Below are positions 3,393-10,071 of a DNA stretch of 11,480 bases, piece after piece. The stretch comes from a virus. The notes beneath the pieces are model-generated. The model did not search any database, was not told the origin of the DNA, and saw only the letters and a program-made list of their open reading frames with translations. A program made the translations under genes and the position numbers. Every line of letters begins with the position of its first letter. Position 1 is the stretch's first letter. The stretch is taken from the UHGV virus genome UHGV-0171102; one strand, written 5' to 3'.

Positions 3393-4175
3393 ATGACCAC
3401 TATTACCAAAGAACGTATTGAATTGTTCATTAAAAATCCGCTTGAAAACGGGCTTACTCGTGGCGAACAAATGGAACTGGCACGAATTGCACTGGCATCA
3501 CTGGAACGCGAACTGATTCGCCACGAGCATGCCAAATGGTCTGACTCCACATTTGGCTGCGTTGGCCCCATTGGTCCACTGAAACACCTCTCAAAAGAGG
3601 CTCTGGAAGCCGCAGCCGAACCAGACGATCTCAGCGAGTGGGCTGATATGCATTTCCTGTTGTGGGATGCACAGCGCCGTGCTGGCATCAGCGATGCTGA
3701 AATTACCGCTGCTATGGAAGATAAATTGAAGATCAACATGGAGCGCCAGTGGCCTGAACCAAAAGATGGTGAGCCTCGCTTGCACATTAAAGAACCCGGC
3801 AACTCTCCGGTAATTCCGGATGGTTTATCCACGGTATGCGCTGAGGCTTATCAGGTTGTAGGAGTTATGGCAGATGCGCTTGGTGTATTCGGTGATGCAG
3901 CAGTACAGAAAGTTCTGGATAACCTGTCACAGCAAAAACTTGTTCACAGAGATGTGCTGCCGTTCTCGCTTCCGGTGACTCCGGATGGTTGGATAAGCTG
4001 TAGTGAGCGAATGCCCGCTCAAGATGATTGGATTTTAATTTATTCAAAGCACGGCGAGTATATGGCAGGACAGGTACAAGGGGAATACGTGGAGTTGAGC
4101 GACGGCACTTTATCGTGGTTAGGGAACGCCTTGTACTGGATGCCTCTACCGGAACCGCCGCAGGAGGTGAAGTGA
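3393..4175 (+). CDS. Phage protein with N-terminal MazG-like nucleotide pyrophosphohydrolase-like region (DUF550-like) and C-terminal DUF551-like domain
   Basis: ATG with SD AAGGA 7 nt upstream; 260 aa. Helical segment LSKEALEAAAEPDDLSEWADMHFLLWD...AMEDKLKINMERQW fits the MazG/HisE-like acidic-helix pattern. C-terminal ...DGWISCSERMPAQDDWILIY...WMPLPEPP is typical of DUF551. Confidence 0.8.
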   Translation: MTTITKERIELFIKNPLENGLTRGEQMELARIALASLERELIRHEHAKWSDSTFGCVGPIGPLKHLSKEALEAAAEPDDLSEWADMHFLLWDAQRRAGISDAEITAAMEDKLKINMERQWPEPKDGEPRLHIKEPGNSPVIPDGLSTVCAEAYQVVGVMADALGVFGDAAVQKVLDNLSQQKLVHRDVLPFSLPVTPDGWISCSERMPAQDDWILIYSKHGEYMAGQVQGEYVELSDGTLSWLGNALYWMPLPEPPQEVK

Positions 4176-4297: not shown

Positions 4298-4628
4298 ATC
4301 CCCCGCAGAACGCAAAGCCGCGCAGCGCGCTCGGCAGTCCGCCGCCGGTGAGCGCAAAATTGAACTGGTGCTGGATAAGCAGGAGCAGGAAATGCTGGAG
4401 CGTAACTGTGCCACGCGTCGCCCCGGGCGTGCGCCTTACGAATTTGGTGAGTATATAGCGTTACTGACCCGCCAGGATGATGCACGCGTGCGCGGGCGTA
4501 TAAAATCGATCAGCAGAAAACGTTGCGGTAAGTGCGGCGAGAGAGTTCCAGTTAATTCATGCCCGTGTAATGGTGACTCGCAATGCTGGGTGACCAAAGG
4601 CTGGCATGAAACGAAATTAATAGTGTGA
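4281..4628 (+). CDS. Hypothetical protein with basic N-terminus and Cys-rich C-terminus (possible zinc ribbon)
   Basis: ORF of 115 aa. Start uncertain: GTG 4281 or GTG 4290, the latter with GGAG 8 nt upstream. C-terminal CGKCG...CPCNG cluster. Stop TGA lies inside the 12-bp palindrome. Confidence 0.55.
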   Translation: MRFVAKSPAERKAAQRARQSAAGERKIELVLDKQEQEMLERNCATRRPGRAPYEFGEYIALLTRQDDARVRGRIKSISRKRCGKCGERVPVNSCPCNGDSQCWVTKGWHETKLIV

Positions 4629-4648
4629 CATGTCACGAAGGTGTTATG
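4624..4648. repeat. Copy 1 of a palindromic repeat: TGTGACATGTCACG + GAA + GTGTTAT
   Basis: Perfect 12-bp palindrome GTGACATGTCAC at 4625-4636. The same 14-mer and following GTGTTAT recur at 7075-7095. Confidence 0.6.
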
Positions 4649-4858
4649 CCAAAAATACGCTACGACCTTGAAGATATGAGAGATAACTCAGCAAATTTTC
4701 CGAAAGAGGTTAAATTTCTCATGCATAAGTATGGTTGCGCCAGGAGGGATATAGTTATCGACAGTCAGCACCCTTGCGGCGAGGATGTAATTTTCATTCG
4801 CGGTAAATGGGAAGGGTATCTTGACGAGAGTTTTTACGATGAATTTGATGGACTTTGA
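4625..4858 (+). CDS. Hypothetical small protein (about 70-77 aa)
   Basis: ORF immediately upstream of terS. Start is either GTG 4625 or ATG 4646 (MPKIRYDLEDMRDN...). Contains AGA and tandem AGG AGG codons. Confidence 0.5.
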   Translation: MTCHEGVMPKIRYDLEDMRDNSANFPKEVKFLMHKYGCARRDIVIDSQHPCGEDVIFIRGKWEGYLDESFYDEFDGL

Positions 4859-4893
4859 ATACTGCCGCCAACTATGGCGGCTTTATTTTGCAT

Positions 4894-4925
4894 GGTACTA
4901 TTACCACAACGGTAACTATTACCAC
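4894..4925 (+). repeat. Tandem direct repeat GGTA(A)CTATTACCAC x2 directly upstream of the terS start
   Basis: ACTATTACCAC at 4897-4907 and 4915-4925 (period 18 bp), followed by GGTGG and ATGATG. Confidence 0.5.
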
Positions 4926-4932
4926 GGTGGTT

Positions 4933-5529
4933 ATGATGCCTGCTGAACCTAAAACCTATAAACGCAAATCAACGCAATTTAAGCCACTAACAGCAATGCA
5001 GGAGGCTTATTGCCAGTCATACATCAAAACGCCTGAAAACCAGACTCAGGCAGCGATTAACGCAGGATTCTCCCCAAATACAGCGGCAGTTAAAGCCAGT
5101 GTCATGATGCGCGATGAACGCATTCAAAAACGGATTGCCGAGTTGATGGAGGAGCGCAACAAACGAATGCGCGTCAGTGCTGATTACGTTCTCATGCGCC
5201 TGGTGGAGATCGACCAGATGGACGTGATCGACATCCTCAACGACGATGGGAGCCTTAAGCCAATCCGCGAGTGGCCGAAAATCTGGCGCACTACGCTTAG
5301 TGGCTTTGATCTGTCATCGACCATCATGAACATGAACGAGGATTCGATAGAGACAATCCTCAAAAAAATTAAATGGCCTGACAAGGTGAAGAACCTCGAA
5401 CTGATTGGTAAGCACGTCGACGTCAACGCATTCAAAGAACGCCTGGATGTTAATGTGAATGTGACAATTGCTGATCGCATAGCGGCAGCCAGGAAGAGAC
5501 TGAAAGAACGTCAGGATGGCAATCAGTGA
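4933..5529 (+). CDS. Terminase small subunit
   Basis: Protein ...INAGFSPNTAAVKASVMMRDERIQKRI... fits the small-terminase family pattern (AGYSxxxA...). Sits immediately upstream of, and overlapping, the large terminase gene. Start ambiguous (ATG 4933 or 4936; the open frame extends to TTG 4855). Confidence 0.8.
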   Translation: MMPAEPKTYKRKSTQFKPLTAMQEAYCQSYIKTPENQTQAAINAGFSPNTAAVKASVMMRDERIQKRIAELMEERNKRMRVSADYVLMRLVEIDQMDVIDILNDDGSLKPIREWPKIWRTTLSGFDLSSTIMNMNEDSIETILKKIKWPDKVKNLELIGKHVDVNAFKERLDVNVNVTIADRIAAARKRLKERQDGNQ

Positions 5530-7001
5530 CAGATACAGCGTTATCTCCTGAAGAGCAGTTAATCGAGGATATTGCAGGGTTCACTCACGATCCGCTTGGC
5601 TATGCCCTCTATGCGTTCCCGTGGGGGGAAGAGGGTACTGAACTGGCACATGCCACCGGTCCACGTCAGTGGCAGGCCGATGCGTTCCGAGAGATACGTG
5701 ATCACCTGCAGAATCCAGAGACGCGATATCAGCCGCTTATGCTGGCACGTGCTTCTGGTCACGGTATTGGTAAATCCGCATTCATCTCAATGCTGATCAA
5801 CTGGGGCATGTCCACTTGCGAGGATTGTAAGGTCGTGGTGACCGCCAACACCGACAACCAGCTACGAACGAAGACCTGGCCGGAAATTATCAAGTGGTCA
5901 AACCTTGCTATCACGAAAGACTGGTTTACCTGTACCGCTACCGCGATGTACAGCAATGACCCTGGGCACGACAAGCGGTGGCGAGCTGACGCAATCCCCT
6001 GGTCTGAGCACAACACTGAGGCATTCGCCGGACTACACAACGAGCGTAAACGCATCATCGTGGTATTTGATGAAGCGTCGAACATTGCGGATCTGGTGTG
6101 GGAAGTTGCCGAGGGTGCGCTAACGGACGAAGACACTGAGATTATCTGGGTGGCTTTCGGAAACCCTACACGTAACACCGGGCGTTTCCGTGAATGTTTC
6201 CGCAAATACAAACACCGCTGGAAAACTGCGCAGATTGACAGCAGGACGGTGGAAGGCACCAACAAACAGCAGTTGCAGAAATGGGTTGATGACTACGGGG
6301 AAGATAGCGACTTCGTTAAAATCCGTGTGCGTGGCATATTCCCTGATGCATCTGAATTGCAGTTTATCCCTACCGGTCTTACTGACGAGGCAATGAAACG
6401 GGTGGTAACTGCTGCGCAGGTGGCACATGCTCCGGTGATAATCGGCGTTGACCCGGCATACTCCGGCGTTGATGACGCTGTGATATACCTGCGGCAGGGG
6501 CTACACAGTAAGGTGCTGTGGACTGGCAACAAGACTACCGACGATCTGATTATGGCGAAGCGTATCGCTGACTTTGAAGACCAGTATCAGGCTGACGCGG
6601 TGTTCATCGACTTCGGTTACGGAACCGGTTTGAAGTCAATCGGTGACGGCTGGGGTCGTACATGGCAACTTGTTCCGTTCGGTGGCGCGTCTACTGACCA
6701 GCAGATGCTCAACAAGCGTGGGGAGATGTTCAACTCATGCAAGACATGGCTGAGGCTGGGCGGCATGCTTGATGACCAGGAAACAGCGGACGACCTGTCG
6801 GCGGCAGAGTACAAAGTTCGAGTGGACGGTAAAATCGTTATCGAACCGAAGGAAGATATCAAGGAGCGGCTTGGGCGTTCTCCTGGTAAAGGCGATGCGC
6901 TACTGCTGACGTTTGCGTTCCCGGTGTCAAAGCGCCTGCGAATTCCCGGGCAGCAGAACCAGCAAGGCAAGGCCATTACAGATTACGATCCCTATGCTTA
7001 A
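5526..7001 (+). CDS. Terminase large subunit
   Basis: 491 aa. Walker A ASGHGIGKS and Walker B IIVVFDEAS in the N-terminal half; C-terminal nuclease-like IGVDPAYSG. GTG start overlaps the terS stop (GTGA). Confidence 0.9.
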   Translation: MTDTALSPEEQLIEDIAGFTHDPLGYALYAFPWGEEGTELAHATGPRQWQADAFREIRDHLQNPETRYQPLMLARASGHGIGKSAFISMLINWGMSTCEDCKVVVTANTDNQLRTKTWPEIIKWSNLAITKDWFTCTATAMYSNDPGHDKRWRADAIPWSEHNTEAFAGLHNERKRIIVVFDEASNIADLVWEVAEGALTDEDTEIIWVAFGNPTRNTGRFRECFRKYKHRWKTAQIDSRTVEGTNKQQLQKWVDDYGEDSDFVKIRVRGIFPDASELQFIPTGLTDEAMKRVVTAAQVAHAPVIIGVDPAYSGVDDAVIYLRQGLHSKVLWTGNKTTDDLIMAKRIADFEDQYQADAVFIDFGYGTGLKSIGDGWGRTWQLVPFGGASTDQQMLNKRGEMFNSCKTWLRLGGMLDDQETADDLSAAEYKVRVDGKIVIEPKEDIKERLGRSPGKGDALLLTFAFPVSKRLRIPGQQNQQGKAITDYDPYA

Positions 7002-7027
7002 TCCGTTAGCGGGGATAATGACGGAGA

Positions 7028-7077
7028 TATCCTCTGGTGAGGATAAAACAAAGCCAGCTCATCGGCTGGCTGTTTGT
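7028..7077. terminator. Candidate bidirectional terminator between convergent terL (+) and the 123-aa ORF (-)
   Basis: Hairpin TATCCTC-TGGT-GAGGATA (7028-7045) and hairpin AGCCAGC-TCATCG-GCTGGCT (7052-7071). The second is flanked by TTTGTTTT on the minus strand and TGTTTGT on the plus strand. Confidence 0.4.
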
Positions 7078-7096
7078 GACATGTCACGGTGTTATT
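7075..7096. repeat. Copy 2 of the palindromic repeat: TGTGACATGTCACG + GTGTTAT
   Basis: GTGACATGTCAC at 7076-7087, identical to 4625-4636, with shared flanks. Abuts the stop codon (7092-7094) of the minus-strand ORF. Confidence 0.6.
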
Positions 7097-7463
7097 GCTC
7101 GCTTAACTTCTGCTTCAGCAAGTAACCTTCAAGCATCCAGATTTTGTTTACAGCATTCTGCCGGGCAATCTTCCGACCAATTTCCGCATCAAAGTTTTCT
7201 GGGCTTGCACAGGCGCTCTCTCCGGTGACGGTGAAGCCGTTGCGCAGCACCAGAACGCAGAACGTCAGCAGAGAAAGTGATTCGTTCGGCTGGTAGTTTA
7301 CCTCTCCGCCAGTATGTTTCGCTTTTATGGCCACGCCAAAGACACCATCTTCTGCTGTGAAATATGCCTCCTGAGCAATAATGCTCTCGATATGGTCTGG
7401 CGTAACGCGCGGCGCGGCTAAACCTTTAGCCTGAATTTCAGATTCAATGTCTTTGTCACTCAT
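7092..7463 (-). CDS. Hypothetical protein (123 aa), reverse-oriented moron; possibly N4 Gp49 / Sf6 gp66-like family (tentative)
   Basis: Minus-strand ORF with SD AAGGTGA about 9 nt upstream of ATG 7463. Convergent with terL and followed by a terminator hairpin. The family assignment is from memory and weak. Confidence 0.7.
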   Translation of the reverse strand: MSDKDIESEIQAKGLAAPRVTPDHIESIIAQEAYFTAEDGVFGVAIKAKHTGGEVNYQPNESLSLLTFCVLVLRNGFTVTGESACASPENFDAEIGRKIARQNAVNKIWMLEGYLLKQKLSEQ

Positions 7464-7479
7464 AGTCTATTCTCACCTT

Positions 7480-7504
7480 AAAAAAATGCCCGGCGAACCG
7501 GGCG
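7480..7504 (-). terminator. Intrinsic terminator-like hairpin (UUCG tetraloop) plus U7, directly abutting the RBS of the 123-aa ORF
   Basis: Minus-strand RNA GCCCGG-UUCG-CCGGGC followed by AUUUUUUU, then AAGGUGAGAAUAGACU-AUG. Confidence 0.5.
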
Positions 7505-7581
7505 AACTGGAGGCAATGAGTTATGCCTTCCGTGGCTGTACTGGTTTACAGCATGAAGTCATCGCAATGGCGTCCTGCTGT

Positions 7582-7624
7582 AAAAATGGCGGTGATAGTC
7601 CTTCAAGGGAAACCATCACCGCCA
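7582..7624 (-). terminator. Candidate tRNA terminator
   Basis: Perfect 10-bp inverted repeat TGGCGGTGAT / ATCACCGCCA (7587-7596 / 7615-7624) with an 18-nt loop, followed on the minus strand by UUUUU. Lies about 45 nt downstream of the tRNA 3' end. Confidence 0.45.
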
Positions 7625-7666
7625 AGCCCCTGGAACTTCTGGCATCACGGTCCTTAGGCGTGATTC

Positions 7667-7743
7667 TGGCGTGGCATGCAGGATTCGAACCTGCGACCAA
7701 CCGCTTAGAAGGCGGTTGCTCTGTCCAACTGAGCTAATGCCAC
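7667..7743 (-). tRNA. tRNA-Arg (anticodon UCU), phage-encoded, CCA encoded
   Basis: Reverse complement GTGGCAT-TA-GCTC-AGTTGGACA-GAGC-A-ACCGC-CTTCTAA-GCGGT-TGGTC-GCAGG-TTCGAAT-CCTGC-ATGCCAC-GCCA. Acceptor (7 bp), anticodon and T stems are perfect, with a 4-bp D stem and GTTCGAATC T-loop. Anticodon TCT. Confidence 0.9.
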
Positions 7744-8170
7744 AACGCTGAGAGCACTTAGCCTGTTAAGGCACCACACTTTGTCGCGGCTCCATAAATG
7801 CTCTCATCGTTGCACCCTCGTCTCTTCCGAGGTGTCACACCGAATCGCCGGGATGGTGAATCCCCGTGCGCGGAATAAAACCGCTCGACTTGCACATTCC
7901 GGCTACCTGGTTCGTTTGCCATAGCAAGGGAGGGTGCCCCTTAAACGTATCCAGACCGCTATCGGCGCATGTGCCATACACCGTACTGCTCAAAATAAAA
8001 GCTCACCCCACCTGTTCAATTTAACGACAAGCCAGTCAGGTTAATAACCGGAATGAACTCTTTGCTTACCTGAAAGGTAATAATTAGTGCGTTAAATGTC
8101 AAGTATCTACGATAAATAAATCACATGTGGTTAAATTGGTAATAATTTAATTGCGTACGGAGTCATTGAT

Positions 8171-8377
8171 ATGTGCATGGGTAGCTCACCATCAGTGCCT
8201 GCAACACCAGAAGTTCAGGCAGCACCACAGGAGCAGGATGCCGCCGTTGTTGATGCCCGCGACGAAGAAACTCGTCGCCGTCGCGCTGCTGCTGGTCGTA
8301 GTTCTACGCTGCTTACCGGTTCTCAGGGCGACACATCAACCGCTAATACCAGCGGTAAAACGCTGCTTGGTCAGTAA
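8171..8377 (+). CDS. Small low-complexity protein (68 aa) upstream of portal
   Basis: ATG with GGAG 8 nt upstream. Its translation-initiation region CGGAGTCATTGA-N-ATG is identical to that of the portal gene. Protein is rich in A/S/T/Q/R, likely disordered. Confidence 0.5.
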   Translation: MCMGSSPSVPATPEVQAAPQEQDAAVVDARDEETRRRRAAAGRSSTLLTGSQGDTSTANTSGKTLLGQ

Positions 8378-8391
8378 CCGGAGTCATTGAA

Positions 8392-10071
8392 ATGGCGGAA
8401 ACAACTAAAGAGCGATTGAACAAACAGTTCGCACAACTTGAAAGCGAGCGTCAGTCGTTCGAGCCGCACTGGCGCGAGTTGAGTGATTACATCAACCCGC
8501 GTGGTTCCCGCTTTCTGACTTCTGAGGTCAACCGTAACGATCGACGCAATACACGCATTATTGATTCGACCGGGACTATGGCGGCGCGCACTCTCGCCAG
8601 CGGCATGATGTCAGGCATCACAAGCCCCGCGCGTCCGTGGTTTCGCCTGGCTACGCCAGATCCTGAAATGATGGATTATGGCCCTGTTAAGTTGTGGCTT
8701 GAGGCGGTGCAGAACCGCATGAACGATATATTCAATAAGTCGAATCTCTACCAGTCTCTTCCGCAGTTATACGGAAGCCTCGGCACATACAGCACTGGTG
8801 CAATGGCGGTGCTGGAGGATGACGAGGACATCATTCGCACAATGCCATTCCCGATAGGCAGTTACTACCTGGCTAACTCACCTCGTGGCAGTGTGGACAC
8901 CTGTTTTCGCAAGTTCTCTATGACTGTTCGTCAGCTTGTTCAGGAGTTCGGGCTAAATAACGTCAGCGAATCCGTAAAAAGCATGTGGGAAAGCGGCACC
9001 TACGAGAAGTGGATTGAAGTGATGCATTCGGTTTACCCGAACATTGACCGCGATACATCGAAGCTGGATAGCAAGAACAAGCCATTCAAATCGGTTTATT
9101 ACGAGGTTGGTGGCGATAACGACAAGTTGTTGCGTGAGTCCGGATTCGATGAGTTTCCAATTATGGCTCCGCGCTGGGAAGTTAACGGCGAAGATGTTTA
9201 TGGATCATCATGCCCGGGTATGCTGGCGCTTGGACCTGTTAAGGCATTGCAGCTTCTCCAGAAGCGCAAGTCGCAGTTGATTGATAAAGCCACCAATCCG
9301 CCGATGGTTGCTCCGACTTCCCTCAAGAATCAGCGCGCCTCCCTTCTTCCTGGCGACATCACGTATATCGATCAGATTACTGGTCAGGATGGTTTCAGGC
9401 CTGCTTATCTGGTTAACCCCAGTACAGCAGATCTGGTAGCAGACATTCAGGACACCCGCCAAATCATTAACAGCGCCTACTTTGTCGATCTGTTCATGAT
9501 GTTGCAGAACATCAATACCCGCTCGATGCCTGTTGAAGCGGTGATCGAAATGAAAGAAGAAAAACTTCTGATGTTGGGGCCGGTTCTGGAGCGTCTGAAC
9601 GACGAATGTCTTAATCCTCTCATTGACCGCGCTTTCTCGATGATGGTGCGTAAAAACATGCTGCCGCCCCCGCCTGACGCGATGGAAGGTATGCCCCTGA
9701 AGGTCGAATACATTTCCGTCATGGCTCAGGCGCAGAAGTCTATCGGCCTGTCCAGTCTGGCGTCCACGGTTAACTTCATTGGTCAACTTGCGCAAGCGAA
9801 ACCAGAAGCTCTCGACAAACTCAACGTTGATCAGGCAATCGATGCATTCGCTGATATGTCCGGAGTGTCTCCAACCGTCATTGTTCCGCAGGAACAGGTT
9901 GAGCAGGCTCGCCAGCAACGGGCACAGCAGCAACAGCAGCAACAAATGATGGCGATGGGGATGGCGGCGGCACAGGGTGCCAAGACGCTAAGCGAAGCTA
10001 AAACTTCGGATCCGAGTGTTTTGTCAGCTATGGCGAATGCAGTTAGTGGTCAGGGTGGGCAATCACAATGA
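8392..10071 (+). CDS. Portal (head-to-tail connector) protein, T7-like family
   Basis: 559 aa. The Q-rich C-terminal tail ...QQQQQQQMMAMGMAAAQGAK... resembles the T7 gp8 C-terminus as I recall it. Sits between the terminase and the scaffold/capsid genes. Confidence 0.85.
   Translation: MAETTKERLNKQFAQLESERQSFEPHWRELSDYINPRGSRFLTSEVNRNDRRNTRIIDSTGTMAARTLASGMMSGITSPARPWFRLATPDPEMMDYGPVKLWLEAVQNRMNDIFNKSNLYQSLPQLYGSLGTYSTGAMAVLEDDEDIIRTMPFPIGSYYLANSPRGSVDTCFRKFSMTVRQLVQEFGLNNVSESVKSMWESGTYEKWIEVMHSVYPNIDRDTSKLDSKNKPFKSVYYEVGGDNDKLLRESGFDEFPIMAPRWEVNGEDVYGSSCPGMLALGPVKALQLLQKRKSQLIDKATNPPMVAPTSLKNQRASLLPGDITYIDQITGQDGFRPAYLVNPSTADLVADIQDTRQIINSAYFVDLFMMLQNINTRSMPVEAVIEMKEEKLLMLGPVLERLNDECLNPLIDRAFSMMVRKNMLPPPPDAMEGMPLKVEYISVMAQAQKSIGLSSLASTVNFIGQLAQAKPEALDKLNVDQAIDAFADMSGVSPTVIVPQEQVEQARQQRAQQQQQQQMMAMGMAAAQGAKTLSEAKTSDPSVLSAMANAVSGQGGQSQ

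Follow-up and report, generated by a model that had tools for sequence, protein, structure and literature searches.

The terL-gp3 locus

The viral DNA considered here (UHGV virus genome UHGV-0171102; 11,480 nucleotides (nt), hereafter the window) carries a minus-strand open reading frame (ORF) of 123 amino acids (aa), a tRNA-Arg gene and several hairpins between the large terminase gene terL and a gp3-like gene that precedes the portal gene (Table 1). Escherichia phage phiV10 and two O157 typing phages match the 1.7 kb around this locus at 98.5% identity, and the window is assigned by its sequence to a phiV10-like temperate podophage (Uetakevirus) related to Salmonella phage epsilon15. The gene order terS, terL, reverse ORF, non-coding stretch, gp3-like ORF, portal, Bbp19-like gene and protease is common to phiV10, epsilon15, SPN9TCW, and TL-2011b. 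A preliminary description of the locus had placed a tRNA-Arg (UCU) at 7743 to 7667 on the minus strand, where ARAGORN and Rfam (RF00005) both find it, and the two terminator-like hairpins that it counted in the minus-strand unit are located on that strand at 7624-7587 and 7503-7488; the palindromic repeat that it saw on the terL side is present as an exact copy of GTGACATGTCAC at 7076-7087. The approximately 430 bp of non-coding DNA that it described before the portal gene amount to 427 bp (7744-8170) with no supported ORF, and the next gene is the gp3-like ORF starting at 8171, the portal gene following after it.

Table 1. Features of the terL-gp3 locus in window coordinates.
Feature	Position	Strand	Basis or remark
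123-aa Acb4-family (PF13876, Phage_gp49_66) protein; exchangeable cassette; predicted cyclic-dinucleotide sponge	7092..7463	minus	Pfam, PDB, AlphaFold2/Foldseek
Shine-Dalgarno AAGGTGAG, conserved flank	7472..7479	minus	Read from sequence; common to most cassette types
Intrinsic terminator H2: GCCCGG-UUCG-CCGGGC, then A and U7	7480..7503	minus	-12.7 kcal/mol, z -3.1; abuts Shine-Dalgarno upstream
Middle leader hairpin	7545..7584	minus	Inverted repeat; pair 7574-7555 GC58/AU6 in consensus fold
Long hairpin H1 (15 bp, then U5), terminator-like, just downstream of tRNA	7587..7624	minus	-24.4 kcal/mol, z -5.2; pair 7616-7595 AU56/GC7
Small hairpin H0, directly 3' of tRNA	7644..7664	minus	Consensus fold, invariant in 64 unique leaders; kept in relatives without tRNA
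tRNA-Arg, anticodon UCU, CCA encoded; backbone element	7667..7743	minus	ARAGORN; Rfam RF00005, 73.3 bits (cut-off 29)
Hairpin with 18-nt arms in RNA directly 5' of tRNA	7743..7812	minus	Inverted repeat, 89% complementary; forms in minimum free energy fold of 7744-8068
Operator-like palindrome TTACCTGAAAGGTAA	8066..8080		epsilon15 equivalents annotated 'repressor'; half-sites invariant
Candidate leftward promoter: -35 TTGACA (8102-8097), 17-nt spacer, -10 TACCTT (8079-8074)	8074..8102	minus	Relaxed scan; below default threshold
Near-invariant block of about 60 bp, CTACGATAAATAAATCACATGTGGTTAAATTGGTAATAATTTAATTGCGTACGGAG, upstream of gp3	8107..8165	plus	E. coli, Salmonella, Klebsiella, Scandinavium and Kluyvera relatives
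GC-rich hairpin between convergent terL and cassette	7052..7071	both fold	z -3.1, -2.5; terminator-like on minus (scan), plus-strand terminator in phiV10 record
Palindrome GTGACATGTCAC, terL-side cassette boundary, operon-end punctuation	7076..7087		Second exact copy at 4625-4636
terL (large terminase), conserved left slot flank	5526..7001	plus	phrog_2, E=9.8e-53; annotated terL in phiV10, epsilon15
gp3-like 68-aa ORF, conserved right slot flank	8171..8377	plus	phrog_831, E=2.4e-36
Portal	8392-10071	plus	PF12236, E=4e-187

The 123-aa protein and the Acb4 family

The 123-aa protein matches the Pfam family PF13876 over positions 1-82 of the 82-position profile (121.2 bits against a cut-off of 27; E=2.5e-35), and its more than 8000 database homologues come mostly from enterobacterial prophages, with PF13876 present in all of those listed; the ORF at 7463 to 7092, which the preliminary description had called on the minus strand, is therefore a genuine gene and not a chance reading frame. 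The only significant sequence match in the PDB is Acb4 (9e4w), with E=0.007 for the single sequence and E=1.5e-6 for a 46-sequence profile. The AlphaFold2 model (predicted local distance difference test score, pLDDT, 83; predicted template modelling score, pTM, 0.74) has the features of an Acb4 protomer, namely three antiparallel strands, N-terminal helices and a long C-terminal helical extension in a dsRBD-like fold (dsRBD, double-stranded RNA-binding domain), and Foldseek returns chains of 9e4w as its top 13 matches (probability 1.00), the next match having E=0.24. The protein is 46% identical to the Acb4 of phage N4 over 107 residues (E=5e-30) and differs from its phiV10 orthologue (Q287B5) at two residues.

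Acb4 of phage SPO1 belongs to PF13876 and is a tetrameric sponge sequestering 3'3'-cyclic GMP-AMP (3'3'-cGAMP) and related signals of the cyclic-oligonucleotide-based antiphage signalling system (CBASS); eight further purified homologues all bound 3'3'-cGAMP and all gave tetramer models of high confidence, the family varies in specificity, and the proteins of phiV10, epsilon15, Sf6 (gp66), and N4 (gp49) are listed in Table S3 of the same study (Chang et al., bioRxiv 10.1101/2024.12.30.630793). A second preprint likewise defines Acb4 by PF13876. The Acb4 homotetramer is a pinwheel in which four ligand pockets lie where protomers meet, and N4 gp49, the protein that gave the PF13876 family its name, binds cyclic di-AMP (c-di-AMP; dissociation constant, Kd, 111 nM) and triggers the PanDA guard system. 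On sequence and modelled structure, membership of the 123-aa protein in the Acb4 family is regarded as secure, and an anti-defence role as an anti-CBASS sponge is the function best supported by sequence, with cyclic-dinucleotide binding and CBASS inhibition expected by analogy with the characterized members. The preliminary description had found no function that could be assigned with confidence and had offered anti-defence as one of three guesses; the profile and structure searches that it proposed have since matched PF13876 and 9e4w, a family with a published mechanism in which the phiV10 orthologue was already catalogued, and among its guesses anti-defence has become the best supported.

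The dsRBD-like fold would also suit a protein that binds double-stranded RNA, or the ribosome as a mimic of a hibernation factor, and that sequesters no cyclic nucleotides, a reading that is considered very improbable for a member of a family with the binding properties described above. The stacking and hydrophobic contacts of the SPO1 ligand pocket are kept in the window protein, where F77, F91, and I95 align with F48, F62, and I66 of SPO1 Acb4, and N63 of SPO1 Acb4, which contacts the ligand through its backbone, aligns with D92. A homologue of 196 aa (P0070; 72% identical to the window protein) joins PF21825 (the Sequestin anti-Thoeris sponge) to PF13876, and its sequence indicates that dual sponges exist in the close enterobacterial Acb4 subgroup.

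An exchangeable slot next to terL

Variation at the locus was followed in a close sample of 80 IMG/VR loci with a terL at least 99% identical to that of the window, in eight GenBank phages and in 13 more distant prophages of other genera. Next to terL genes of at least 99% identity the distance from the terL stop to gp3 varies from 819 to 1982 bp. A tblastn-based census of 77 slots adjoining such terL genes, two of which hold two cassettes and are tallied under both types, recorded Acb4 alleles in 36 slots, a 140-aa family (phrog_4846) in 18, a membrane or transmembrane (TM) and coiled-coil family of 200-270 aa (phrog_4780) in 11, a 110-aa family (phrog_27507) in five, a 115-aa repeat protein with a weak bactofilin-like match (phrog_3163) in two, fragments in two, and nothing in five. 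The Acb4 alleles fall into three groups that are 66-100% identical to the window protein. In Klebsiella phage ST512-KPC3phi13.3 (locus L006), the same slot, adjoining the same tRNA, holds a Tad2-like protein (PF11195, E=4e-26), and among the more distant relatives the slot is occupied by an HNH endonuclease, further membrane proteins, or small ORFs with no assigned function. Empty slots occur in phage phiv142-3 as well as in the five IMG/VR loci, and in a Providencia prophage the spacing between terL and gp3 is just 185 bp.

The boundaries of the exchanged segment are sharp. The left flank is conserved from terL through the hairpin and the palindrome up to the base preceding the cassette stop codon, and the right flank is conserved from the Shine-Dalgarno sequence, 8 nt ahead of the ATG, being identical before Acb4, 140-aa, and 110-aa cassettes and in empty slots. 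Thus the locus combines conserved flanks with at least five cassette families or none among close relatives, and two known anti-defence families occupy the same position, Acb4 in the window, phiV10, and epsilon15 and the Tad2-like PF11195 protein in L006. The slot is a sharply bounded, exchangeable cassette position in phiV10/epsilon15-like phages, and its small soluble occupants are, by association, candidate counter-defence proteins. The comparison with relatives lacking the insertion, which the preliminary description had suggested, accordingly found both clear cassette limits and empty slots, and its view of the ORF as an inserted accessory gene holds in that the position varies between near-identical phages, some of which have no ORF there, and shrinks to 185 bp in Providencia.

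A conserved core gene of the packaging and head module, with a structural or assembly role, would be an alternative identity for the ORF, since the succession terL, reverse ORF, gp3, and portal is seen again in phiV10 and epsilon15 and in further Uetakevirus records. Yet the position is taken by unrelated proteins or by nothing beside near-identical terL and portal genes, the PF13876 family occurs in the unrelated phage types N4, Sf6, and SPO1, and phages with an empty slot, such as phiv142-3, are viable and have been sequenced, which contradicts a core role and leaves it next to no probability.

Several further observations concern the occupants themselves. The families phrog_4846, phrog_27507, phrog_3163, phrog_4780, and phrog_11227 are of no known function; the 140-, 110-, and 115-aa cassettes had no significant sequence match in the PDB, and PADLOC found no convincing defence-protein match among the slot cassettes, its hits being confined to coiled-coil matches and, for the HNH cassette, a homing-endonuclease match, all of them weak. 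Other occupants include phrog_11227 (a membrane protein of 138 aa), a 148-aa membrane protein, and a 60-aa ORF together with a 79-aa ORF, and alternative occupants are exemplified by the slot cassettes of loci L011, L014, L004, L053, and L003 and by L092, L095, L096, and L097. Empty slots of 820 bp (L026, L007, and others) contain the Shine-Dalgarno sequence and an 8-codon ORF (MKYEFDGF, stop) between the terminator hairpin and the palindrome, which represents the scar of a deletion or, alternatively, a minimal ancestral state. In L037 and other slots of 1541 bp, the region upstream of the TM/coiled-coil cassette, read by eye, contains ATGACC and TATAAT separated by 17 nt with the palindrome TTACCTTAAAGGTA in the spacer; this cassette, unlike Acb4, may own an operator-controlled promoter.

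Terminators and the structured leader

A leader of about 200 nt precedes the cassette; 64 different versions of it, drawn from different genera and from loci that have or lack the tRNA, demonstrate its conservation. The leader folds more stably than its shuffled counterparts (z -3.6; 0 of 200 shuffles as stable), and compensatory changes occur in three of its hairpins, with few independent events behind them. In H2, these changes affect the pairs 7499-7492 (GC57/AU4) and 7498-7493 (GC56/CG4); this hairpin is an annotated terminator in epsilon15, and Providencia has the same structure in a different sequence. A terminator scan of the region returned four sites against 1.6 expected. The hairpin at 7052-7071 is the predicted terminator of the cassette transcript and possibly that of terL too; its earlier description as a bidirectional terminator is plausible, as it folds on both strands, whereas the scan scored it on the minus strand only and the phiV10 record annotates it on the plus strand.

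Rfam, searched at the gathering threshold over the whole window and at E<=1 over 7000-8200, matched nothing except the tRNA, so the leader corresponds to no described RNA family. The leader may be a cis-acting RNA that gates any cassette through processive antitermination or conditional read-through, and phrog_4846, phrog_27507, and phrog_3163 may be new inhibitors of immune signalling; taken together, these two proposals are speculative and rather unlikely. In the Providencia prophage (L100, 4082-4266), the minimal junction keeps a leftward TTGACA-17 nt-TACATT element and a minus-strand terminator approximately 70-100 nt downstream, and may represent a short leftward transcription unit without a gene, yielding a small RNA or controlling the divergent head promoter.

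Expression of the cassette and the most probable interpretation

The stem of the terminator next to the cassette ends at 7488, leaving 8 nt to the Shine-Dalgarno sequence and 24 nt to the ATG (7463), and no promoter-like site was detected in 7503-7464, even at a relaxed threshold. Because the stem ends so close to the ATG and the Shine-Dalgarno sequence lies in the shared flank, transcription of the cassette has to begin farther upstream and continue through both terminators. Among sigma-70-like elements on the two strands of 7440-8175, the candidate leftward promoter (Table 1) ranks best, and TTGAC[AC]-17-TACCTT occurs in 90 of 99 slots with 23 different spacers. Its -10 element overlaps the operator-like palindrome, which has the form TTACC-N5-GGTAA and is one of five such sites in the window against 0.13 expected, at 681-695 and 743-757 (before an early ORF), at 4901-4915 and 4919-4933 (before terS), and at 8066-8080 (before gp3). 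The equivalent sites are annotated as repressor operators in the epsilon15 record, three of them beside the repressor gene, and for this reason direct action of the repressor on the packaging and head transcription units is implied by analogy. Since the sole upstream promoter-like element overlaps a palindrome annotated as an operator, the sequence argues against expression of the cassette from a repressed prophage. On the opposite strand, no sigma-70-like promoter is detectable in the near-invariant block upstream of gp3, a probable regulatory region of the head operon that may be an activator-dependent late promoter or another kind of site.

The interpretation considered probable is that the 123-aa protein is an Acb4 sponge directed against CBASS, encoded in an exchangeable slot and expressed by read-through during lytic growth, with the tRNA and the leader belonging to the phage backbone. 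In this scheme, a leftward transcript under repressor control would supply the tRNA and, through read-through of the terminators, the cassette mRNA, which would most likely be made during lytic growth and not in the repressed prophage. The translated protein would assemble into a homotetramer and bind cyclic dinucleotides made by the CBASS cyclases of the host, and this capture would keep the CBASS effector from killing the infected cell. The use of the candidate promoter, its control by the repressor, and read-through are each put forward as presumed steps, and expression in lytic growth fits a counter-defence gene better than a lysogenic-conversion gene.

A number of observations weigh against this interpretation. 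Of the ligand contacts of SPO1 Acb4, those specific for guanine (K36, E49) and those to phosphate (Y57, T70, K81) are replaced in the window protein, the alignment showing E49→T78, Y57→A86, T70→I99, and K81→M110, together with V56→C85, and no conserved counterpart of K36; because several ligand contacts are not kept, the ligand preference may differ from that of SPO1 Acb4. Membrane proteins and an HNH endonuclease are among the occupants of the slot, which is not exclusively a counter-defence position. A promoter scan of 6800-8500 at default settings gave no hit, the assignment of the palindromes as repressor operators derives from the annotation of the epsilon15 record, and no antiterminator was recognised in the window by a Pfam search of the genes upstream of terS. 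A sponge, moreover, should be abundant, yet the gene sits behind two strong terminators. For phiV10, SPC32H, and ZX5, the literature searched offered no usable data on expression or operators.

The preliminary description had seen a classic moron signature in the locus. Morons were reportedly defined by Hendrix and colleagues in lambdoid phages, and examples are bor and lom of lambda and gp15 of HK97. A classic moron, with its own promoter and terminator and expressed from the repressed prophage for a benefit in lysogenic conversion or superinfection exclusion, would agree with the reverse orientation between forward genes, with the downstream terminator (7052-7071), and with the presence of extra DNA between genes that are adjacent in relatives (phiv142-3, the five empty IMG/VR slots, and Providencia), the last two being traits that the lambdoid morons share; some alternative cassettes, moreover, encode coiled-coil membrane proteins that could act in exclusion, and one membrane/coiled-coil cassette seems, when read by eye, to bring a TATAAT-containing upstream region. 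However, the Acb4 cassette has a terminator upstream in the place of a promoter, with no room for one between the stem and the ATG; its base composition does not stand out (GC 0.49, the window as a whole having 0.508, in a profile with no anomaly); the sole conserved promoter-like element overlaps an annotated repressor operator, so that repression in the lysogen is probable; and the counter-defence role of Acb4 has been demonstrated in the lytic phages SPO1, N4, and Bas69. The locus thus departs from the lambdoid morons in promoter, composition, and probable behaviour in the lysogen, and of the moron signature only the added DNA is left; a classic moron is judged improbable.

The tRNA-Arg(UCU) gene

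The ORF and the tRNA are separate modules, and the tRNA belongs to the phage backbone outside the cassette. In a first survey, the tRNA was present in 83 of 86 slots, whichever cassette accompanied it, and the Acb4 ORF occurs without the tRNA in epsilon15, Kp4865-1, and L051, while phiv142-3 has kept the tRNA and has no ORF. The preliminary description had joined the two as one inserted unit, and a single acquired module, in which the tRNA decodes rare codons needed for the ORF, would account for their adjacency on the same strand and probably in the same direction of transcription. That proposal is refuted by the codon count, as the Acb4 ORF contains zero AGA or AGG codons, and by the independent distribution of the two genes, the tRNA staying in place when the cassette changes or is absent and the ORF occurring without it; the 13 more distant relatives all lack the tRNA, and a joint module retains almost no credibility.

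tRNA-Arg(UCU) genes are common in coliphages and Shiga toxin (Stx) phages as supplements for rare codons. The window resembles these phages in the anticodon and in the concentration of AGA codons in early genes, all 13 of its AGA codons lying in genes upstream of terL, and the tRNA fits an ordinary prophage-borne supplement of this kind. It is unlike them in that the tRNA lies inside a long structured transcript, with a 320-nt stretch on its 5' side and a two-terminator leader ending at the cassette. Every E. coli genome searched has a tRNA-Arg gene to which the phage tRNA is 85.9% identical, and approximately 500 records contain copies with at least 95% identity to the phage tRNA. In the Scandinavium locus L090, tRNA-like pieces, GGTTCGATTCCCC and GGTTCGACTCCGGCCACCACAACCA, lie on the minus strand just upstream of the leader, at the site of the tRNA in the E. 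coli phages; ARAGORN calls no tRNA for these pieces, which may represent a decayed tRNA or a different tRNA-like element, and similar ends of the form ...CCACCACAACC(A/C)A occur in L095 and L096.

The palindrome and operon-end junctions

When up to two mismatches are allowed, GTGACATGTCAC has three matches in the window against 0.37 expected. The epsilon15 genome (L089) holds three exact copies (2142, 19517, and 39612) against 0.10 expected, each of which ends a rightward gene block: one lies after terL, a second after gp18, where a terminator, the reverse gene gp19, an operator, and the tailspike gene come next, and the third after gp49, with a terminator, an operator, and terS behind it. The same succession of palindrome, terminator, and operator precedes terS in the window. 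The slot thus coincides with a recurring operon-end junction and is not the interior of one operon, which corrects the preliminary description, where the insertion had been placed inside a single late operon. The palindrome, which has accessory genes as neighbours, may serve in regulation or mark a boundary of recombination. The copy at 4625 in the window is followed by a plus-strand ORF of 70-77 aa (4625-4858) that epsilon15 lacks at the equivalent junction.

Relation to known systems

The 123-aa gene is a member of Acb4 that had already been catalogued by sequence, and on its own it is ordinary. The window protein is only approximately 25% identical to SPO1 Acb4 (PDB 9E4W), from which it differs by an extended N-terminus and by a variable insertion (residues ∼37-64) that lies between strands 1 and 2, and SPO1 is a lytic Bacillus phage, whereas the window phage is temperate with a Gram-negative host. 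N4 Acb4 is closer, being a small stand-alone protein at 46% identity from a phage with an E. coli host; N4 is, however, lytic, and its gp49 lies in an early-region hot spot and carries a Cys/Gly-rich C-terminal tail that is absent from the window protein. Tad2 (PF11195/DUF2829), an anti-Thoeris sponge, shares the slot, the orientation, and the neighbouring tRNA-Arg in ST512-KPC3phi13.3 but has an unrelated fold, binds glycocyclic ADP-ribose (gcADPR), and is absent from the window.

In N4-like phages, hot spots alternate between Acb4, Tad2, Sequestin, and genes with no assigned function (preprint 10.64898/2026.06.04.730250). The slot next to terL is similar in its fixed position between conserved genes and in holding Acb4, Tad2, or other genes depending on the relative, and differs in that a single cassette usually lies behind a shared leader, terminators, and a Shine-Dalgarno sequence, in temperate phages. 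A literature search found no account of such an anti-signalling hot spot for Uetakevirus. The added value of the locus is therefore its position, where a single slot adjoining terL variously carries one of two known nucleotide sponges or one of several small uncharacterised proteins, across common temperate phages of E. coli, Salmonella, and Klebsiella, which yields a short list of candidate counter-defence genes as well as a near-isogenic natural set of phages differing mainly in the slot cassette. N4 Acb4 is sensed by the guard systems PanDA and Panoptes, and phiV10 is in use as a reporter phage for O157:H7; the predicted anti-CBASS gene of phiV10 bears on its host range, as such genes can trigger both systems.

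Additional annotations

The coding sequence PhiV10p04 (phrog_4647; 7447-7737, plus strand), annotated as a hypothetical protein in phiV10, TL-2011b, and EC.W1-9, was rejected as coding; it runs antisense over the tRNA and the leader hairpins, is truncated in SPN9TCW, shows 1-nt indels and frameshifts among near-identical relatives, and is almost certainly an annotation artefact. The annotated terS start of phiV10 (TTG 4855; 224 aa) is probably too far upstream, judging by sequence: within its first 80 nt lie two operator-like palindromes and a hairpin that resembles a terminator and carries a T-run (GCCGCC...GGCGGC, ∼4866-4891), and a 197-aa terS, as annotated in relatives, is consistent with an ATG at approximately 4935-4938. 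In the early region, a plus-strand ORF of 260 aa (3393-4175) combines a dATP/dGTP pyrophosphohydrolase domain (PF04447, E=1e-41) with DUF551 and is assigned from these domain matches as an accessory gene of nucleotide metabolism.

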